DNA of 43,000 bases. Source: a virus. The notes below the pieces were generated by a model. That model was not told where the DNA came from. It ran no database searches and worked only from the letters and a program-made list of their open reading frames with translations. The position numbers and the translations under genes are program-made. Positions 8,298 to 43,000 of this stretch are shown here, piece by piece. Numbering within the stretch: position 1 is the stretch's first letter; the number at the start of each line of letters is the position of its first letter. The stretch is taken from IMG/VR virus record IMGVR_UViG_3300045938_000052, positions 1 through 43,000 of that record; one strand, given 5' to 3'.

Positions 8298-8774
8298 ATG
8301 GCGCACATCCTTGAGAACCGAGTCTGCGAACTCAGCACGACCGAAGGCGTCGGCGCCTTCGCTCTCACGCCCGCCATTGCCATGCAGCGCTTCGGCGCGG
8401 TCATGGCGGTCGGCGACACGTGCTGGTACGTCGCCTCCGCGGTCAATGCGTCGACCGGCGCCCCGACCGGCGAGTACGAGTACGGAAAAGCGACGTATCT
8501 GGGCTCGAACTCGCTCGGCCGCACCGCGCCCTACGGCTCAAGCAGCGGGGGCGCGGCCGTCGCCTTCAGCGCTGGCTTGAAGCAGATCGCGATGACCATT
8601 TCCGCTCCGAGCTTTCGGACCAACGAAGACTGGTTGCGTGCCCTCGGGATCCTGACATTGCTCGAGGGCAAACAGGACGCAGGCACACCCAGCGACGCGG
8701 CCGTACTGGCCCTCCTTATGAGCGCGTCCACCTTCGCGCGGACCGAAACGCAGCAACTCAAGATCGGCGCTTAA
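8298..8774 (+). CDS. Hypothetical protein resembling N-terminal anchor domains of phage fibre/spike proteins (158 aa)
   Basis: Sequence is MAHILENRVCELSTTEGVGAFALT...GDTCWYVA...GEYEYGKATYLGSNSLGRT...SSSGGAAVAFSAGLKQI. This pattern is recalled from fibre N-termini. No search was possible. Confidence 0.6.
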   Translation: MAHILENRVCELSTTEGVGAFALTPAIAMQRFGAVMAVGDTCWYVASAVNASTGAPTGEYEYGKATYLGSNSLGRTAPYGSSSGGAAVAFSAGLKQIAMTISAPSFRTNEDWLRALGILTLLEGKQDAGTPSDAAVLALLMSASTFARTETQQLKIGA

Positions 8775-8776
8775 AA

Positions 8777-11700
8777 ATGGCTTTCGACCCGCAACTTGCC
8801 GACCTCGACCAACTGCACCAGGATTTTCTTGCTCTACAGGGCACGGTGACGTCGACCGAGGAGACCGTCAACCTCACGCTTAACCAGGTGACCAGCGCGA
8901 TCGCGCTCTGGCTGCCAATCGTGGTGAACGCCGAAGCGTTGGCCGACAGCCTCGACGATGGCAATGGCGAGGTGATTACGCCTCCGCCGGATCCGACGGT
9001 CACGGGCTACGTGATCGAGGGCGACAGCATCGATGCCGGCGGTGGCACGAATAGCCAGTCGTGGCCATCGCAGTTCGCCACACTCACTGGGTTCAGCGTT
9101 CGCAATGTGGCCACACAGGGCGACACGATCAACAGCATGATCAACGGGTTCGACAACCCGGGCGGCATCGGTGCGGCGTATTCGTCCGATTACGACAAGG
9201 TGATCATCGGCGGGCTCACGAACGATATTGCGCTCGACAACACACCACTCTGGCGCCTGAAAGAGCTGCTCTACGGTATTTGCCACAAGGCACAGGCCAA
9301 GGGGTTCAAGAAAATTTATCTGATGACGGTGCCGCCACGGGTGGTGGGCACCTCGATCTGGAATCAGGAAAAGGAAGATCGGCGAATCGCGCTGAATGCG
9401 TCGATGCTCACCGAATTCACGTCCTACGGCGCCGATGGTGTGATCGATCGGACCGCTGGGTTCACGACGGCCGATCTTTTCGATGGCGTGCATCCGACCA
9501 ACGCGGGTGCGTTCAAGATTGCACAAGCGGTGAAGGCGGCCCTGACTCAGACGCAACAGCCGGGCACTATTACGCCAAAGGGCGTCGTCTTTGAAGGTGA
9601 CAGCATCACTGCCGGTACGAGCGGCAATACGGATCCATACCCGGCGCAGTGGTCGCGCCTGACCGGCATCTCGTCGTCCAACATCGCCTACCCGGGTGAC
9701 CAGATTCGCTCGTTACTCAACAATTTCGACTCGCAGGCCGGGCCGAAATTCAACGCCCAGACGTGCGACATCTACATGTTCAATGGCGGGTCGAACGACA
9801 TCAGTGACAACAGCGCCGACAAGAACAGCATCGTCGATGTTATTCAACTGATCATCGATAAGGCGCATACCGCGGGCTTCAAGGTCATTCTCTCGACCAT
9901 TCTGCCGCGTGGTTTCAATGCGGCGAACGAAGCCATTCGGACATCGGTGAACCAATGGATTCGCACGAACTGGCGGAACGTCGCCGAAGGTCTCGTCGAC
10001 TTCGCCGCGGCCATCACCGACACGAGCGGTATGCCTGACGGGGTGCATCCGAGCAATGCAACGGCGGCCATCATGGCGGCCGAGGTGGCGAAAACCTTGG
10101 TTGCTTCGGTCACAGCGGGCGATGTGGTCAACAGCGACGGCTCGCTCAACGAAGCGAACTTCCTTGCCATCGCCAACAACTACTGGCAAGCGTTCGACTA
10201 TCGCTTCGGTGCAGCACCGACCAAGCCCACCGGTGTGCCCACGTACACCGAGCCGGTCAGCCGGTATATGCCTGACGGTTCGCTCACGCCTCCGACTGGA
10301 GGGGACATTCGTTCCTACCAGTTCGGTAATTACCGGGCTGGCTATACCGATTTCTCTTCCAACGAAGAGCACTTCATCTGGGCTCCCGACAACCAGGTCA
10401 AGTTCACTGGTGTGACCGGCATCCAAGGTTCCAGCACTTCGCACGACTGCCATTCTTTCAAGCCTGAAAGCAACTGGGTGCGTTACCTGCGTGGCGAGAA
10501 CCAGCTCAAGGGCGTGGAGGTCGAGTACTGGCGCAATCATGGACAGCCGAATCTGTCTCGCCCCACTTGCATGGGTCGCGCGCACGGTCGCCCCGGTTGG
10601 GCTGTGCAATCTCTGGTTGGTTTCCAAGATGGTTTCATCTGCACCATCGGGGCCAACACGATGTACAACGTGGCAAGCACTCGCCTGCCCGCCGGCATGA
10701 TCCCCACGGACATCGCCATCACATCGTCTAACGAGTTCGCCATCGTGACCTACTGGAGCACGGTGGACAAGCGTGGCGGCATTGCTGTCCTAGCCCTGTG
10801 TGGTCTGGGTCAGAACATGACTCTGGACAGCCCGACGCCGAATCCGGCAAACACCAATGACGGCTGGTGGGGTGAGTGGGAGCATGTTCGTTGGGGTCTG
10901 CACAACCTCGGCAACTTCGCTGGCATCAAGTATCTCGGCAAGTACGAGATCCCCGGCATGCTGGCGCCTACGGCTGCAAGTGCAACGACTGGCTACTACC
11001 GTCGCGGTTACCTCAATGCCAATGAGCCGGAAGGCACATGCGGCAACACAGGTGACTGGCTGCAGAACGAAGCACATCGTCAGATGTGGATCACCGGTCG
11101 CTTCGCCGGACGTTGGGCCAAGCAAGGTGCTGTCGTTGTCATCTCCAAGTCGGAGAAAAAGGCTGCGATCATCAACCTTGAGCCGCTGTTCGAACAGATC
11201 ACGAAGATGTATTTCACGACTCGTGAGCGCTTCTTGGAAACAACGACCTACGGCTATGCGGACAACCAGTATCCGTATGGCTTCGAGACAGTGCCAGCGC
11301 AGAAGCCGCAGTTCGTGAAAATGTTCAACCTGGAAAGCAAGCCGACCGCTTGCCATATGTACAGCTACGGCATCATCAATGATCCGAAGCGTTGGTGCTA
11401 TGTGGCAATGGAGAACGGTTATATGCATACCATTTCAATGGGTGGATATTCCTCGTTCCCTGGGCCAAACGATCCGCCGGATGATCCTTCGCAGGTTCAA
11501 ATCATTGGGCGTACTTTCGTTGGTGCGAACCCAGTGTCAATCAACCAAGTGAAGGAAAAAGCCGGTAACAAGTACGGTTTGCTGCGTGATGAGCGGGATA
11601 CGTTGCTTGTTGCTTCTCGTGCCGAATGCGCTGTCCGTTGGATCGACTTCAATACAGCCAACGGTACTGAGATTCTGAAGCTGCAGGACAGTCGAATCAC

Positions 11701-11929
11701 CGATATCACTCATGCTGAGGATATGGATAACCACGGGACAGAAAGCTATACCGTTGGTATTTCTGACATGAGCGGTGGGTGCATCCGTCACTATGCATGG
11801 GGCGATACCTATCTCCATACAGAGGGTGGTCTCCACTACCCGCTGGTCAATGGCGAGGACTTTAACTATGGCGGTGCTTTCAGCGTGCCGGGCAAGCCAT
11901 TCAAGAACGACAGCGCCAACGTCTCTTAA
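8777..11929 (+). CDS. 1050-aa multidomain protein: N-terminal coiled-coil-like segment, two tandem SGNH/GDSL hydrolase domains, and a C-terminal ~450-aa repeat/propeller-like domain
   Basis: The ATG at 8777 lies 3 nt after the previous stop. Domain 1 has GDSIDAGGG, GGLTNDI and DGVHPT. Domain 2 has GDSITAGTSG, GGSNDI and DGVHPS. The C-terminus is paralogous to 27639-29024. Confidence 0.85.
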   Translation: MAFDPQLADLDQLHQDFLALQGTVTSTEETVNLTLNQVTSAIALWLPIVVNAEALADSLDDGNGEVITPPPDPTVTGYVIEGDSIDAGGGTNSQSWPSQFATLTGFSVRNVATQGDTINSMINGFDNPGGIGAAYSSDYDKVIIGGLTNDIALDNTPLWRLKELLYGICHKAQAKGFKKIYLMTVPPRVVGTSIWNQEKEDRRIALNASMLTEFTSYGADGVIDRTAGFTTADLFDGVHPTNAGAFKIAQAVKAALTQTQQPGTITPKGVVFEGDSITAGTSGNTDPYPAQWSRLTGISSSNIAYPGDQIRSLLNNFDSQAGPKFNAQTCDIYMFNGGSNDISDNSADKNSIVDVIQLIIDKAHTAGFKVILSTILPRGFNAANEAIRTSVNQWIRTNWRNVAEGLVDFAAAITDTSGMPDGVHPSNATAAIMAAEVAKTLVASVTAGDVVNSDGSLNEANFLAIANNYWQAFDYRFGAAPTKPTGVPTYTEPVSRYMPDGSLTPPTGGDIRSYQFGNYRAGYTDFSSNEEHFIWAPDNQVKFTGVTGIQGSSTSHDCHSFKPESNWVRYLRGENQLKGVEVEYWRNHGQPNLSRPTCMGRAHGRPGWAVQSLVGFQDGFICTIGANTMYNVASTRLPAGMIPTDIAITSSNEFAIVTYWSTVDKRGGIAVLALCGLGQNMTLDSPTPNPANTNDGWWGEWEHVRWGLHNLGNFAGIKYLGKYEIPGMLAPTAASATTGYYRRGYLNANEPEGTCGNTGDWLQNEAHRQMWITGRFAGRWAKQGAVVVISKSEKKAAIINLEPLFEQITKMYFTTRERFLETTTYGYADNQYPYGFETVPAQKPQFVKMFNLESKPTACHMYSYGIINDPKRWCYVAMENGYMHTISMGGYSSFPGPNDPPDDPSQVQIIGRTFVGANPVSINQVKEKAGNKYGLLRDERDTLLVASRAECAVRWIDFNTANGTEILKLQDSRITDITHAEDMDNHGTESYTVGISDMSGGCIRHYAWGDTYLHTEGGLHYPLVNGEDFNYGGAFSVPGKPFKNDSANVS

Positions 11930-11947
11930 CCAAAACCGGATCAAAAC

Positions 11948-12871
11948 ATGAGCCAAGAGCAACTCGTACAAGCGGCCGCCCAACTGGCCAAGGATCTGCG
12001 CGACACGCGTGACGCGTATGGCGCGCGCGCCGCGGCCGTGATTGCCAGCACGTCGCAATTCCCCGCCAAGCTGGCGGAGTTCTCCAGCTTGCTCACGCGA
12101 TACGAGAATGCGCGCGATCGGATCGAGTCGGCAATGAGTGGTTCGAATCCCGGCACGGGCACCATGCTGGCTTATCTCGATTTCAGCGAGGCTGCCGATC
12201 GTGAGCGTCCGGATAATTGGATCAACAAGGTGCCGACCGGGGGCATCTATCGCAATTACGGGTCCGGCAAAGTGGCCGGCGGTCGAGGTGATCCTTACGG
12301 CCCCTTCCCGGGAATGTCGTGCATGACGGAAAGCGCGACGAATGGAAATATCGCCATTTACGGCGAGGACATCTATTCAATTCCAGATGTCGTGACATTC
12401 GAAAATGCTTTTCGTGCGGGCAACGGTGAGGGCAATATTCTGTCTTTCAGCGACATGGGTGCAATCGAAGGCGATACCTACTTTAGCGTCTACAAAATTG
12501 CGCAAGAGAATCCGGGGAAACGCCGTTTTCGTCTGACTGCAAAGGCTTTCGGCCTGTTCGATGACTTCATTACCGACGAAGTCGACGCATTGATGATGAA
12601 CGGCGAGAGCTGCTACTGGCCGAAAATGCGGCGCGAGGCAGACAACCGCTTTTCGTTGCGTGTGAACGGCAAATACCTCGGCGCCACAGACGTTCAATTC
12701 CCGGGCGTATTGCAGGGGCGGTTCGGTGCATGGGGTCTTTTCCAGCAGGATGGCTTTGGCGTCGACGGCAGCTTCCGCTGCGGCCTGGGCCTGGCCATCT
12801 GCGACAAGCGTTTGGAGAACCTCGGCACCGGCGACTATGCCGTTCCGACCGTTCGTCCCGCCTATCCCTGA
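11948..12871 (+). CDS. Hypothetical protein (307 aa) with helical N-terminus
   Basis: Clean ORF in the lower-GC block. The N-terminus MSQEQLVQAAAQLAKDLRDTRDAYG... is helical. There is no catalytic motif. Confidence 0.7.
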   Translation: MSQEQLVQAAAQLAKDLRDTRDAYGARAAAVIASTSQFPAKLAEFSSLLTRYENARDRIESAMSGSNPGTGTMLAYLDFSEAADRERPDNWINKVPTGGIYRNYGSGKVAGGRGDPYGPFPGMSCMTESATNGNIAIYGEDIYSIPDVVTFENAFRAGNGEGNILSFSDMGAIEGDTYFSVYKIAQENPGKRRFRLTAKAFGLFDDFITDEVDALMMNGESCYWPKMRREADNRFSLRVNGKYLGATDVQFPGVLQGRFGAWGLFQQDGFGVDGSFRCGLGLAICDKRLENLGTGDYAVPTVRPAYP

Positions 12872-30619: not shown

Positions 30620-31188
30620 TCGATATCGACTGGAAGAAATTCGTGGGTGGTCTCGCGCCCGTGCTCGGCCTGGCCCTTGGAGGGCCGCTGGCACAGAGTG
30701 CGGTGAAGGTGCTTGCCAGCGCCGTCCTCGGCGACGACACCGCCAGCGAGGCTGACGTCGCTGCCGCCATCACCGGCGGGCAGCTCAGCGGCGAGCAGAT
30801 CGTCGCGATCAAGACCGCCGAGCAGGCCTTCGCCGTGCGCATGCACGAGCTCGACGTCGACCTGGTGAAGATCAACCAGTCGGCCGAGGACGCGATGCTG
30901 CGCGACGTCCAGGATGCCCGGGCGCGCCAGGTGGCCACCAAGGACTACATGCCGCAGATCATCTTCTTCCTCTTCCTGGCCATCTATGTGGCCGAGGTCG
31001 CGATGTTCTTCTTCGGGCGGATGCCGACGGACGAATACGTGCGCGCCCTGATGACGCGTGCATTCGGAACGGTGGAGGCGGGGGTCGTGGGCGCGGTCGC
31101 CTACTTCATCGGCTCGAGCCGTGGCTCGAAGAACTCGGGCGACGCGATCCGAAAGATCGCGGAGCAGGCCGGCGGCCGCGCTGGCTGA
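30616..31188 (+). CDS. Holin-like protein of the '3-TM GTA holin' (DUF3154) type
   Basis: ATGA overlap with the endolysin. Sequence is MIDIDWKKFVGGLAPVLGLALGGP..., then a helical middle, then IIFFLFLAIYVAEVAMFFFG and VVGAVAYFIG. Confidence 0.7.
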   Translation: MIDIDWKKFVGGLAPVLGLALGGPLAQSAVKVLASAVLGDDTASEADVAAAITGGQLSGEQIVAIKTAEQAFAVRMHELDVDLVKINQSAEDAMLRDVQDARARQVATKDYMPQIIFFLFLAIYVAEVAMFFFGRMPTDEYVRALMTRAFGTVEAGVVGAVAYFIGSSRGSKNSGDAIRKIAEQAGGRAG

Positions 31189-31365
31189 CCTTTGCGCTCG
31201 AGGAGGGCACTAGCACCGCGAAAAAAGACAGGGCGACCCTTTGCAGTGCGTCAACACCGCATCGAGCCGCCTCTCCACAGACGCAGCCTGTGAATTAGCC
31301 GAGGCCCTGCCACCTGTACAGGCGGGCCGAGTGTAAACGACCGTTACAGGTCTTCTAAGTTCACC

Positions 31366-32154
31366 ATGGCCACACCCATCATCCCGTGGCTGGGCGGCAA
31401 GCGCCGCCTGGCCGACACCATCATTCCGCGCTTCCCAGCGCACACCTGCTACGTCGAGGTCTTCGCCGGCGGCGCCGCGCTGTACTTTCTCCGGCCGCCG
31501 GCGGAAGTCGAGGTCATCAACGACGTCAACGGCGACATCGTCAACCTCTACCGGGTCGTGCAGAACCACCTCGAGGAGTTCGTGCGCCAGTTCAAATGGG
31601 CGCTCTCGAGCCGCGAGATCTTCAAGTGGCTGCAGGACACGCCGCCCGAGACGCTGACCGACATCCAGCGCGCCGCGCGTTTCTTCTATCTCCAGCACCA
31701 TGCGTTCGGCGGCAAGGTGTCCGGCCAGACCTGGGGCACGGCGACGACGGCGCCGCCGGTCAACCTGCTGCGCATCGAGGAGCAGCTGAGCGCGGCCCAT
31801 CTGCGGCTGGCCACCACACAGATCGAGCGTCTCGACTGGAAGGAGTGCATGCGTCGGTACGACCGGCCGCACACGCTGTTCTATCTGGATCCGCCGTACT
31901 GGGAGACGGAGGGCTACGGCGTGCCGTTCGGGTGGGCCGAGTACGAAGCCATGGCCGCGGCACTGCGCGAGCTCAAGGGCAGGGCGATCGTCAGCCTGAA
32001 CGACCATGCAGCGATTCGGGCCTGCTTCGAGGGCTTCCACATGGAGTCGCTCGACATCACGTACCAGGTCGGTGGTGGCCACCGAGGCGCCGATCGGAAG
32101 GAGCTGCTGATCTTCAGCTGGGACGTGATCAGCGAACCCGCTGGATTGTTCTAG
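31366..32154 (+). CDS. dam: DNA N6-adenine methyltransferase, Dam/D12 class
   Basis: Motifs are WLGGKRRLA, EVFAGGAALYF (AdoMet motif) and FYLDPPYW (DPPY catalytic motif). Confidence 0.9.
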   Translation: MATPIIPWLGGKRRLADTIIPRFPAHTCYVEVFAGGAALYFLRPPAEVEVINDVNGDIVNLYRVVQNHLEEFVRQFKWALSSREIFKWLQDTPPETLTDIQRAARFFYLQHHAFGGKVSGQTWGTATTAPPVNLLRIEEQLSAAHLRLATTQIERLDWKECMRRYDRPHTLFYLDPPYWETEGYGVPFGWAEYEAMAAALRELKGRAIVSLNDHAAIRACFEGFHMESLDITYQVGGGHRGADRKELLIFSWDVISEPAGLF

Positions 32155-32471
32155 GGCGCCGTGGTGTCGTCGAAGGCACCAGGGATGCACCACCAGATCT
32201 GAGGCACTGCCGGCTTTCCGTACGCTGGCACCTCCTCCTGGCCATAGATCAATATCCCGCCGCGATCGACCTTTTTCACGTGTGCGTGAATGAGGGGTTC
32301 GATCGCATCGGACTCGAGGCGACTGTTCTTAAACAGTCGCGCGCTGATCTGTGGATAATGCCGACGCGAGTCCTGCCCAAAGATCAGCCAACCGACGTGC
32401 GGCCGGTTCTTTATGATGTCGCTGGGCAGCTTTTGCCCAGCTCGGCGGAGAAGATAGACGGTGCATTGCAC
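32151..32471 (-). CDS. Hypothetical protein (106 aa), second gene of the minus-strand accessory cassette
   Basis: GTG start with a poor SD. GC3 is reasonably high in frame. The 3' end converges on and overlaps the dam stop by 4 nt. No recognisable motif. Confidence 0.4.
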   Translation of the reverse strand: MQCTVYLLRRAGQKLPSDIIKNRPHVGWLIFGQDSRRHYPQISARLFKNSRLESDAIEPLIHAHVKKVDRGGILIYGQEEVPAYGKPAVPQIWWCIPGAFDDTTAP

Positions 32472-32509
32472 TGTGAAAACCTAAGGAAGTACGGCGTACG
32501 ACGCCTCTC

Positions 32510-33250
32510 CTAGTCGACTGGTGGCAATTTGAACTCCGGCCAGAAACGGGGAGAAAGGCGTTCATGTGTTTCAGTAAGAGACCAATTCGGCAGCTCTGCA
32601 AGTCCCCCATCGAAAGCGACTTTCACGCCGCCAGCGCGGAAATGTGGATACTTGTATACGATTGGATCCATTAATGATTGCATCAATGTCCCAATGTTGT
32701 CTTTTCTAGGGTCTGTTGCTGCGTAATGGGCTGAAACTTTATTTCGCCAAGCGTGGATTTCGGGTATTGCTTCGATTACATACTCGCCACAATGCGTTCT
32801 AACTTTGTTCGCAATTGACCTATCTAGCAAGGAGCTGAAGGCAAGTTTTTCCGAGATAAGGAATTCTATGAGTCCAAGTGCCCTTAAATAATTTACTAAA
32901 GTCAGAGCGTACCAATTAAAAGCGTTAGGAATTATAGCTGGATATATTAATCCATACGCCAAGACAGTATGTTTCGCGTGTGGATCTTTTCTAACTGCCT
33001 CTATTTCATTTTCTCTAACAGTTTCTGCGAGCATATGTAGTCCCGCATAGCCTTGAGCAACAGCACGAAGATTGATAGGTGGATTATTTTTATCGAACCT
33101 GATATTTCTTTGCCAATCGACCGTAATAAATTCTGTCTCACTGGTTTCAGGCATGTCCGGATTGCTTATCGTTATGACGCGTGCATCGTAGTACGGCGGG
33201 GCCATCCTTACCAATGTTCTAGACGAAAGTCGAATGCTCGACTCACGCAT
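32510..33250 (-). CDS. AT-rich accessory (moron) gene: hypothetical protein with an Rx5H (HEPN-like) motif; candidate defence or restriction effector
   Basis: The ORF lies in a sharply AT-rich block; 32881-32940 has 20 G+C out of 60 by my count. The motif WRNKVSAH is encoded at 32726-32746. The start is ambiguous (ATG 33250, 33205 or 33154). Confidence 0.7.
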   Translation of the reverse strand: MRESSIRLSSRTLVRMAPPYYDARVITISNPDMPETSETEFITVDWQRNIRFDKNNPPINLRAVAQGYAGLHMLAETVRENEIEAVRKDPHAKHTVLAYGLIYPAIIPNAFNWYALTLVNYLRALGLIEFLISEKLAFSSLLDRSIANKVRTHCGEYVIEAIPEIHAWRNKVSAHYAATDPRKDNIGTLMQSLMDPIVYKYPHFRAGGVKVAFDGGLAELPNWSLTETHERLSPRFWPEFKLPPVD

Positions 33251-33261
33251 CCGGTGCCATG

Positions 33262-33447
33262 ATCCCGCAAAAATCCCGCACATCACTCGGGAACCCGCAT
33301 GCAGCTTGAGTTTGCGTTCCGGCCTCGGGCACCAATTAGCCGGACTCACATGGAAAGAGTGGACGTTTGGCAGCAGGCGGCTACAGTGACGGACTTTCGC
33401 GGGCAGATAGCTCCCCGCGCAGATTCCCGCACACGATCCCGCACACA
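33262..33447 (+). promoter_or_regulatory. attP-proximal array of direct TCCCGCA(C/A)A repeats (candidate integrase arm-type or regulatory sites)
   Basis: Copies occur at 33262-33270, 33273-33282, 33292-33300 (AACCCGCAT), 33411-33421 (degenerate), 33423-33433 and 33436-33447. All are in the same orientation. The last copy abuts the int ATG. Confidence 0.5.
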
Positions 33448-34400
33448 TGGCATACGTCCGGAAATTCAGAGACGGCTGGCGAGTTGAAGTCCAACGGCAC
33501 GGCCACCGGGCCAGCCACGTCGCCAAGACGAAGCGCGAGGCTCAGGCCTGGGGCGTCAAGAAAGAGCTGGAGCTCGACTCACTCCATTCGACGGGTGGGC
33601 ACACCTTCGGCGAGGCCGCCGAGCACTACCTGAAAACCGTCAGCACGCAGAAGGAGAGCGTGGACTGGGAGCGAAGGCGGTTCGACGCATTCCGCAGCTA
33701 CTTCGGCGACCAGATGGAGTTGGCCAGCATCACGTCCGCGGAGATCGGAACATGGCGGGACTGGCGCCTTTCGGGCGATGAGGCGACTGGCCGAGGTGCG
33801 GTGAGCGGGTCGACTGTGAAGCGAGAAATTAACCTGCTTCGGAACATGTTCAGCATCGCGCGGCAGGAATGGAAGTGGATCACCCACCATCCATTCGAAG
33901 GAGTCAGGCTGCCGGCCGACAACGATCCGCGGCATCAATTGTGGCGCTGGCAGCAGATCAAGCGGGTGCTGCGCTCCGACCGCGGCGGCAAGACTGGCCA
34001 GGTCATCAAGGCCTTTCACATTGCCCTGCACACCGGCCTGCGTCTGTCTGAGGTGCTCAGTGGAACGTTCGACGCATCACGCCGGGTGTTCGTGCTTGCG
34101 CGGAGCAAGGGAGAGGGGACCCGTCAGGTTCTCGTTCCGATCCCTCGACGCGGTTTGAAATTGCTGCCTGCAACCTTCACTGTCGATGCGAACGAGGCGA
34201 GCACGCTGTTCGCAAGGTTGACGAAGCAGCTGCTGATCGAGGGCCTGACGTTCCACGACTCGCGAGCTACGGCCCTGACGCTCTTGTCACGTCGAATGGA
34301 CGTCCTAACGCTCGCGCGGATCAGTCGCCACAAAGACCTTTCGATCTTGATGAACACCTACTACCGCGAAAGAGCGGAGGACATCTCGGCGCGGATCTGA
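33447..34400 (+). CDS. int: Tyrosine integrase
   Basis: The N-terminus is MAYVRKFRDGWRVEVQRHG.... Catalytic residues appear in HTGLRLSE, FHDSRAT and RISRHKDLSILMNTYY. Confidence 0.93.
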   Translation: MAYVRKFRDGWRVEVQRHGHRASHVAKTKREAQAWGVKKELELDSLHSTGGHTFGEAAEHYLKTVSTQKESVDWERRRFDAFRSYFGDQMELASITSAEIGTWRDWRLSGDEATGRGAVSGSTVKREINLLRNMFSIARQEWKWITHHPFEGVRLPADNDPRHQLWRWQQIKRVLRSDRGGKTGQVIKAFHIALHTGLRLSEVLSGTFDASRRVFVLARSKGEGTRQVLVPIPRRGLKLLPATFTVDANEASTLFARLTKQLLIEGLTFHDSRATALTLLSRRMDVLTLARISRHKDLSILMNTYYRERAEDISARI

Positions 34401-42402: not shown

Positions 42403-43000
42403 GCATCAAGGTCATGACGATGGTGTTCGACCGCTACCCGGTGGGTGGCAGCGAGCGCCTGCTGGCGCTTGCCATGGCCGACCACGCGCGCGACGACGGC
42501 ACGCGGATCTGGCCGTCGCTCGACGAGCTGGCGCGCAAGACGCTGCAGAGTCGAAGCACCGTGAAGCGGCAGATCGCGCGCATGCTGCTGATCGGCTGGC
42601 TCGAGCGTGTTGGCGACGGCACGGGCCGCGGCAAGACGAACGAGTACCGCATCAGCCCGGCCTGGATCGCGGGTGAATTGCTGCAGGCGACGCCGCCAGC
42701 GGCGGCTGTTACAGGTGTGGATGGAGTTATCCACAAGGGGTCCAATCTGAACCCCTTTCCCGAGGCCGAAAAGGGGTCCATCCACGACCGAAAGGGGTTC
42801 ATCCGCGATCGAAAGGGGTTCACAGCTGTGCACCCCGAATCTTCAGAACCGTCAAGAACCGTATCCCCCCTACCCCCCGGCGGGGGGGTGGCCGGGTTCG
42901 ATGAGGTGTTCGCCGAATACCCGGTCAAGGCGAACCGAGCGAAGGCCATGCGGCGATGGATGCGCATCGCGCCCACCGAAGCGGATCGCGCGGCGATGCT
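42399..43000 (+). CDS. Replication initiator (O-like, N-terminal HTH), 3' end runs off the window and continues at 1..437
   Basis: ATGA overlap with the cII-like stop. Sequence is MSIKVMTMVFDRYPVGGSERLLALAMADHARDDGTRIWPSLDELARKTLQSRSTVKRQIARML.... The frame is open to 43000. Confidence 0.85.
   Translation, partial: MSIKVMTMVFDRYPVGGSERLLALAMADHARDDGTRIWPSLDELARKTLQSRSTVKRQIARMLLIGWLERVGDGTGRGKTNEYRISPAWIAGELLQATPPAAAVTGVDGVIHKGSNLNPFPEAEKGSIHDRKGFIRDRKGFTAVHPESSEPSRTVSPLPPGGGVAGFDEVFAEYPVKANRAKAMRRWMRIAPTEADRAAM
42735..42822 (+). repeat. Iteron array (candidate ori) inside the initiator gene
   Basis: The core AAGGGGT(C/T)CA occurs at 42735, 42771, 42792 and 42813; the last three are spaced 21 bp apart. 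One inverted copy (TGAACCCCTTTC) lies at 42748-42759. Confidence 0.75.
42874..43000. repeat. Right copy of the 127-bp identical window ends (circular wrap)
   Basis: Identical to 1-127. Confidence 0.95.

Follow-up and report, generated by a model that had tools for sequence, protein, structure and literature searches.

A candidate stand-alone HEPN-type RNase of an undescribed, AbiU2-like family beside the integrase gene of a temperate siphophage

The window analysed here, a stretch of 43,000 nucleotides (nt) of viral DNA (positions 1–43,000 of IMG/VR record IMGVR_UViG_3300045938_000052), is the complete circular genome of a temperate siphophage with a Burkholderiales-type host. Two independently acquired accessory genes, termed gene 1 and gene 2, lie on the strand opposite to the late genes, between the end of the late operon, formed by the lysis genes and an orphan Dam methyltransferase gene (dam), and the attP/integrase (int) region. 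Gene 1, a horizontally acquired foreign gene in the int/attP-proximal accessory slot, belongs, as far as sequence comparison indicates, to an undescribed and patchily distributed family of approximately 490 clusters, composed of proteins of about 210 amino acids (aa). On balance, its product is probably a stand-alone RNase of the HEPN type, from an undescribed AbiU2-related family, which would act in the lysogen as an abortive-infection or exclusion factor or as a toxin. The family is interpreted as a new HEPN branch, with AbiU2 as its closest relative in the superfamily.

Conserved motif and predicted fold of the gene 1 family

Single-sequence scans of Pfam, NCBIfam, PHROGs and PADLOC returned no family match for gene 1, in keeping with the earlier note on this DNA, which had recognized no family for it. 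A word-indexed search of 5.8 billion proteins found two relatives only, at 53% and 41% identity. An exhaustive HMMER scan, queried with a profile built from three family sequences, recovered 487 cluster representatives at E ≤ 1e-3, 353 of them at E ≤ 1e-10, and most family members are 200–225 aa long. Conservation was counted in an alignment of 109 family sequences (A2), and motif occurrence in 203 family proteins.

The most conserved feature of the family is a block that reads RNKVSAH in gene 1, coded at 32746..32726 and corresponding to residues 154–160 when counted from the ATG at 33205. In A2, R154 and K156 are present in 109 of 109 sequences, H160 in 108, and W153 and A159 in 99 each, whereas position 155 varies between N (82 sequences), H (15) and D (10). 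The pattern [WY]-R-[N/H/D]-K-[VIL]-x-A-H occurs in 198 of the 203 family proteins, with the residue after the motif arginine being N in 156, H in 22, D in 17 and another residue in 7. Positions conserved in at least 90% of A2 comprise D30, G55, E67, W98, R108, Y142, W153, A159, H160, P166, D169, S177, W208, R220 and W222. A protein of this size would contain about one R-x5-H (0.8 by our own estimate) by chance, and a lone Rx5H in a single sequence is not significant; the motif is meaningful because it is near-invariant across the family.

The active-site motif of HEPN proteins is Rx4–6H, usually with N, D or H directly after the arginine (PMC3710099). The gene 1 family shows both features, and the predominance of N, D and H after R fits this rule and supports a HEPN assignment. 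The fit of WRNKVSAH to the HEPN signature, which the earlier note had pointed out from the one sequence, is thus borne out across the family.

In a Pfam scan of the 109 members at E ≤ 1, HEPN_AbiU2 (PF18734) was matched by 25 members, with a best E-value of 9e-4, and every other Pfam family that was matched at all was matched by a single member. The three HEPN_AbiU2 matches with known position all fall on approximately positions 96–142 of the 193-position profile; they span residues 96–145 of the member P0009, 112–153 of the consensus of alignment A3, and 81–125 of the member P0045. In both cases checked (P0009 and the A3 consensus), the match covers the motif and the helix preceding it.

Family members also occur in larger architectures. 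P0009 (599 aa) consists of two tandem copies of the domain, with two WRNKVGAH motifs, followed by TPR repeats, and P0008 (489 aa) joins an uncharacterized 270-aa N-terminal domain to a copy of the domain in which C replaces N (WRCKVSAH). Carboxy-terminal TPR fusions are found in several further members. Both HEPN dyads and associations with TPR/Sel1 have been described, the latter explicitly for AbiU2 (PMC3710099).

An AlphaFold2 model of gene 1, calculated from a 56-sequence alignment, reached a predicted local distance difference test (pLDDT) score of 87.5 and a predicted template modelling (pTM) score of 0.85; an earlier model from a three-sequence alignment (pLDDT 38) was discarded. The predicted structure begins with a β-hairpin (residues 26–38), continues with four long helices (46–73, 91–118, 123–146 and 148–161), and ends with a short helix, a second β-hairpin and a final helix. 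The motif sits in the fourth long helix. HEPN domains are four-helix up-down bundles that carry their motif on the last core helix.

The family has a sporadic distribution, with members in Zetaproteobacteria, Nitrospirales, Bacteroidota, Patescibacteria, Omnitrophota, Chloroflexota, Trueperaceae and Sphingomonas, and these members are usually lower in G+C content (GC) than their surroundings. They are solitary genes in variable neighbourhoods, often close to defence or mobile genes. At one locus (L025) an SRA-HNH gene lies upstream of the member and an Abi_C gene directly downstream; at another (L023) an Eco57I-type methylase gene adjoins it. Other neighbours include a KAP NTPase with a transposase, RelB/ParE, and a C5 methylase with HNH and MNT/HepT genes, and on a conjugative Shewanella plasmid the member adjoins TIR and caspase genes. 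Among 130 neighbouring proteins surveyed with Pfam, no partner family recurred. The tandem-domain and TPR architectures, taken together with this patchy, island-like distribution, fit HEPN conflict systems.

Among viruses, family members were found on four IMG/VR contigs, and 50,697 isolate-phage records, including the nearest relatives of the window, encode no relative of gene 1. On one of these contigs (IMGVR_UViG_2596583641_000001, locus L034, 1–2390) a member with 44% identity lies at the end of a prophage, in the order int, a 176-aa gene, member. The intervening 176-aa gene is lower in GC and has no assigned function. The integrase of this prophage is 31% identical to that of the window. 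As a separate observation, SRAP genes flank both the closest gene 1 homologue (L001) and a gene 2 homologue (L009).

Several results weigh against a HEPN assignment. No member reaches the HEPN_AbiU2 gathering score of 26.8 bits, the best seen being 21.3 bits (P0009), and gene 1 itself (P0001) has no HEPN_AbiU2 match at E ≤ 1. Because all of these scores are sub-threshold, they constitute a lead rather than membership, and the family is treated as a probable sister family. An upstream acidic residue, E67 in the first long helix, is conserved in 108 of 109 sequences, which speaks for a HEPN site; its basic partner, though, is at −3 ([RK]64 in 88 of 109) and not at +4, giving an [RK]xxE arrangement in place of the usual HEPN Ex3[KR]. 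The modelling and fold comparison that the earlier note had proposed yielded the confident model described above and no significant structural match: the best Foldseek E-values were 1.7 against the PDB and 1.1 against BFVD, and the HEPN structures 3jrt and 6m6w_B appeared within noise only (E > 3, template modelling (TM) scores 0.33–0.38). Sequence and profile searches of the PDB with alignments A1 and A2 were empty. An hhalign comparison of the family profile with the Abi_C protein of L025, a HepT (L017) and gp49 of Burkholderia phage KS9 gave no signal, although the targets were single sequences and the comparison is hence uninformative. PADLOC holds no model for the family; a scan of the 109 members with PADLOC-DB v2.0 returned scattered single matches, none recurrent, and neither gene 1 nor gene 2 matched a defence model meaningfully in the PADLOC scanning that had likewise been proposed. 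Finally, many neighbourhoods of family members consist of plain housekeeping genes. At an odd, non-island site in a Chloroflexota metagenome-assembled genome (L029, 2113–4459), the member is placed tightly between gcvH and gcvP in a glycine-cleavage operon.

It is therefore possible, though unlikely, that gene 1 is not a HEPN RNase at all, and that the WRNKVxAH...TDP...D block instead serves another role, for example ligand or nucleic-acid binding, another enzymatic activity, phage counter-defence or regulation, its likeness to AbiU2 being convergent. This explanation is kept as a rival because every homology signal is sub-threshold and the fold search, run with a high-confidence model, found no HEPN structure. 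The AbiU2 similarity is moreover confined to about 45 of the 193 profile positions, many neighbourhoods are of the housekeeping kind, and a HEPN active site does not explain the invariance of D30, W98, R108, Y142, K156, P166, D169, S177, W208, R220 and W222. On the other side, HEPN active sites are described with just this R-[N/H/D]-x4-H substitution pattern, no Pfam family other than AbiU2 is matched repeatedly, and the tandem-domain and TPR architectures and island-like spread are those of HEPN conflict systems. The HEPN-type RNase thus remains the preferred interpretation of gene 1.

Relation to known HEPN systems

Of the known systems, HEPN_AbiU2, the family of the AbiU2 protein from the AbiU abortive-infection system of Lactococcus lactis, resembles gene 1 most closely, with a motif of the Rx4–6H type, a polar residue after the arginine, and the placement of this motif in a helix of an all-α core. 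Lactococcal AbiU2 is a protein of approximately 340 aa that acts beside AbiU1, in contrast to the solitary proteins of about 210 aa in the gene 1 family. The gene 1 family further differs from AbiU2 in its invariant K156, its TDP...D block, its N-terminal β-hairpin, and a C-terminal α/β extension containing a W..R.WP motif. Association with TPR/Sel1 and with restriction–modification (R-M) genes is common to both, being described for AbiU2 (PMC3710099) and seen here for the gene 1 family. Anti-phage activity has been reported for a cassette that is solitary like gene 1, namely a Vibrio integron cassette with a HEPN AbiU2 domain, which conferred resistance to T4 and T7 (bioRxiv 10.64898/2026.03.17.712381).

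The Ymh/TIGR02391/Abi_C family and an integron-cassette HEPN protein (PDB 3jrt) are, like gene 1, small, solitary and mobile. In phage KS9, a related type of phage, gp49 (L012, 7129–7890) is a TIGR02391-family gene, which we take to be a HEPN gene of the Ymh type, and it occupies the equivalent slot after dam; an SRAP peptidase gene is found in the same accessory region, which extends from dam to the genome end. Despite these resemblances in size and position, neither the Abi_C protein of L025 nor KS9 gp49 has detectable sequence or profile similarity to gene 1, and 3jrt gave a non-significant Foldseek match only (E 3.6, TM 0.26/0.33).

The HEPN–MNT (HepT/MntA) pairs of type II/VII toxin–antitoxin systems offer another comparison. 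Their toxin is likewise a HEPN protein, with an Rx4H motif, and the island that contains one of the family members (L017) also has a HepT/MNT pair. Unlike in these pairs, no MNT or other conserved antitoxin gene adjoins members of the gene 1 family, gene 2 is not a nucleotidyltransferase according to the family scans, and hhalign found no relationship between the family profile and HepT, represented by a single sequence.

HEPN abortive-infection genes are well known as accessory genes of prophages, and the gene 1 family is probably a new family within this known kind, rather than something categorically new. A HEPN gene beside the integrase gene of a prophage would not surprise a specialist and brings no new principle. 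Should the gene 1 product prove to be an active HEPN RNase that shields the lysogen, single-gene abortive-infection systems would gain a family of approximately 490 clusters spread over many phyla, and one more temperate phage would be known to carry a defence gene in an int-adjacent slot. Genome-wide defence annotation misses the family because Pfam, NCBIfam, PHROGs and PADLOC all lack a model for it.

A working mechanism can be outlined on this basis. Dimerization of the gene 1 product would bring R154, N155 and H160 of two protomers together in a composite, metal-independent RNase site. The lysogen might be spared because little of the protein is made, or because the N-terminal β-hairpin and C-terminal α/β extension peculiar to the family hold the enzyme in check. 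A superinfecting phage would perturb the cell, upon which cellular or phage RNA could be cut, and this cleavage would result in abortive infection or exclusion, to the benefit of the prophage. The invariant residues R154, K156 and H160 are the obvious point mutants, and a small solitary gene is cheap to test.

The accessory locus: gene 1, gene 2 and dam

The AT-rich character of the locus is confined to gene 1, which has a GC of 0.441 and a GC at third codon positions (GC3) of 0.40, compared with 0.650 for the 43-kb window as a whole and a GC3 of 0.90 for dam. The trough itself (GC 0.35–0.45) covers only the core of the gene, from about 32620 to 33140. The five lowest-GC 500-nt intervals of the whole window all lie within 32,400–33,300 (0.42–0.48), in accordance with the abrupt drop in composition described in the earlier note, and a recount of 32881–32940 reproduced its figure of 20 G+C out of 60. 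That note had described an AT-rich cassette of two genes, which is accurate for gene 1 only, as gene 2 is of intermediate composition (Table 1). Its placement of an acquired gene in the accessory slot by attP/int is supported: gene 1 combines foreign composition, a position at the int-proximal end of the prophage, between dam and the int-proximal repeats, and absence from related phages. Scans found neither direct or inverted repeats around gene 1 that might be insertion scars nor a sigma-70-like promoter for it.

Table 1. Features of the accessory locus and its flanks (positions in the window)
Feature	Position	Strand	Description
dam	31366..32154	plus	D12-class N6-adenine DNA methyltransferase; Pfam PF02086 8e-23, PADLOC MTase_II 1e-97, phrog_56
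Gene 2	32151..32471	minus	106 aa, GTG start, GC 0.592, GC3 0.72
Spacer between gene 1 and gene 2	32472..32509	minus	38 nt; weak 5-bp hairpin; TAGG Shine-Dalgarno-like element 8 nt before GTG
Gene 1	32510..33205	minus	231 aa; intact open reading frame, ATG 33205; identical to Joint Genome Institute (JGI) call P0001
W153-R154-N155-K156-V157-S158-A159-H160 codons	32726..32749	minus	Candidate HEPN Rx5H catalytic motif
Gene 1, alternative start	33154	minus	214 aa
Candidate attP region	33262..33445	plus	Two pairs of 10-nt direct repeat ATCCCGCACA: 33262, 33273, 33424, 33436
Tyrosine integrase (int)	33447..34400	plus	Pfam Phage_integrase 7e-7; divergent from gene 1

For gene 1, the strand and the end assigned in the earlier note stand, whereas its start near 33250 (about 230–247 aa) probably gives way to one of the two starts in Table 1. 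Homologues align only from about residue 20 onward and the direct repeats begin at 33262, which makes these two starts likelier than 33250. A 338-aa reading frame extending to 33526 and the ATG at 33250 were both rejected as starts; no homologue reaches into the extension, its GC pattern resembles that of non-coding DNA, and it runs into both the repeat cluster and the start of int. The opposite orientation to the late genes, also stated in that note, is evident from the gene order.

The coordinates of gene 2, its distance from gene 1 and its convergence on dam agree with those given earlier, its stop codon (32151–32153) overlapping that of dam (32152–32154). Three clusters of homologues with 56–74% identity and 40 invariant columns, together with a coding GC pattern, indicate that gene 2 is a real gene. 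Its predicted product is basic (isoelectric point 9.3), contains no hydrophobic segment and is soluble. No match to it was found in Pfam, PADLOC, PHROGs, NCBIfam or the PDB, the search with alignment A5 included. Further contexts were sought by pattern scans in IMG/VR and the JGI metagenomes and by tblastn in phage and plasmid sequences, and none turned up. The spacer separating it from gene 1 folds no more stably than shuffled sequence (z = −0.06) and a scan found no terminator-like site in it. Co-transcription is plausible here because the 38-nt spacer contains no convincing terminator, and gene 2 may accordingly share a transcript with gene 1 in this phage.

The best gene 2 homologue (74% identity) is located at the int-side end of a prophage with Mu-like tail genes (L003–L008), 40 nt downstream of a different AT-rich gene of 227 aa (GC 0.459 versus 0.645). 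DNA homology between the window and this locus (L003) corresponds to 32166–32478, that is, gene 2 and 7 nt upstream only. In a second context (L010) an AT-rich 359-aa gene lies downstream of the gene 2 homologue, and in a third (L009) the homologue is not preceded by a co-oriented gene. The 227-aa gene of L003 (9277–9960) has no family match and may represent another uncatalogued accessory-gene family; 11 records of Klebsiella phages encode full-length homologues with 26% identity. One of these homologues, in Klebsiella phage 1 LV-2017 (L038, 2968–3663; KY271401.1, 16138–16794), lies between the lysis genes and terS, where no gene is annotated.

These observations bear on whether the two genes form a module, as either a toxin with an antitoxin or regulator or an effector with an adaptor, gene 2 being the portable partner. 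A HEPN abortive-infection pair had been one of the two proposals of the earlier note. The co-orientation of the genes, the short gap free of a convincing terminator, the recurrence in L003 of a gene 2 homologue closely downstream of an AT-rich gene next to int, and the AT-rich neighbour in L010 are what such a module would predict. Local tblastn over every fetched locus, however, found the two genes together only in the window: a gene 2 homologue is absent from about 24 other gene 1 loci, a gene 1 homologue is absent from the three other gene 2 contexts, and the neighbour census shows no recurrent small partner. The homologue in L009 does without a co-oriented upstream gene, and nothing resembling gene 2 adjoins the homologue of the 227-aa gene in Klebsiella phage. 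The end of the L003 homology 7 nt above gene 2 is the pattern expected if insertions had occurred independently next to a gene already in place. A two-gene module is accordingly improbable, and the proposed pair is not upheld; by these comparisons gene 2 is a separate accessory gene with no assigned function, not a dedicated partner of gene 1.

In a bolder version, gene 2 would be a portable docking or partner gene, sitting about 40 nt downstream of unrelated, freshly acquired and interchangeable AT-rich effector genes at prophage ends, as here and in L003, and serving these effectors in common as antitoxin, activator or expression adaptor, here together with a new stand-alone HEPN defence family. 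This combination is very unlikely; if true, the portable gene 2 and the family of approximately 490 clusters would amount to a modular ‘swap-in effector’ cassette.

The other proposal had made the cassette the nuclease partner of the adjacent D12 methyltransferase, so that gene 1, gene 2 or both would be the restriction endonuclease of a convergent type II R-M system. The flanking genes are indeed a D12-class dam and a tyrosine integrase gene, as the note had stated. As in R-M systems of the DpnII/MboI type, the window has a D12-class methyltransferase, with a convergent gene overlapping its stop codon, and dam scores highly against the PADLOC type II methyltransferase model (Table 1). The dam gene is, however, 73–76% identical in nucleotide sequence to those of Burkholderia phage KS9, Pseudomonas phage B3, Acidovorax phage Aval and many others, and in Aval, KS9 and B3 it is followed by genes other than gene 1 or gene 2. 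Neither gene matches a restriction-enzyme model in PADLOC, Pfam or NCBIfam, and all examined homologues of the two genes elsewhere lack a Dam neighbour. The native composition of dam and the foreign composition of gene 1, reflected in their GC3, indicate that they were not acquired together. With Dam a widespread orphan, and with genes differing in both composition and distribution, the R-M partnership is rejected and can be considered effectively refuted. From its distribution, the Dam of the window is a common orphan phage methylase that stands outside any gene 1/gene 2 module.

Phage genome and the integrase-proximal region

The first 127 nt of the window are identical to its last (42874–43000), from which it follows that the assembly is closed and circular or that the genome has direct terminal repeats, and in either case that the phage is complete, at approximately 42.9 kb. 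From terminase the genome continues with portal, capsid, tail and lysis genes and dam, followed by gene 2 and gene 1 on the minus strand, int on the plus strand and an early operon on the minus strand. The nearest isolate is Acidovorax phage Aval, with approximately 74% nucleotide identity in the structural genes and dam. An Rfam scan of the whole window identified no RNA family, and no tRNA genes were found in it.

Against an expectation of 3.5, the window contains 9 matches to the repeat ATCCCGCACA. The 4 that cluster between gene 1 and int form two pairs (33262–33282 and 33424–33445) about 150 nt apart, the second of which stops 1 nt short of the int start codon. The repeats are probably integrase arm-type sites of attP, or else operator sites of int. 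If they are attP arm sites, gene 1 would lie at the very end of the integrated prophage.

The stretch with the second-lowest GC of the genome, at 10900–12300 (0.50–0.54; 0.50 in the 500-nt interval near 11,300), falls in a long plus-strand open reading frame (8420..11929). By tblastx it resembles a 790-aa protein whose gene lies among the tail genes of the L003 prophage, which is otherwise different, and it looks like a mosaic host-range or tail-fibre module. The same prophage shares with the window an 82-bp stretch of 83% DNA identity (31109–31190 in the window, 13235–13316 in L003), located in the gene just upstream of dam, at the end of the late operon. This common stretch, together with gene 2, points to an exchange of modules between the phage of the window and the phage type of L003.

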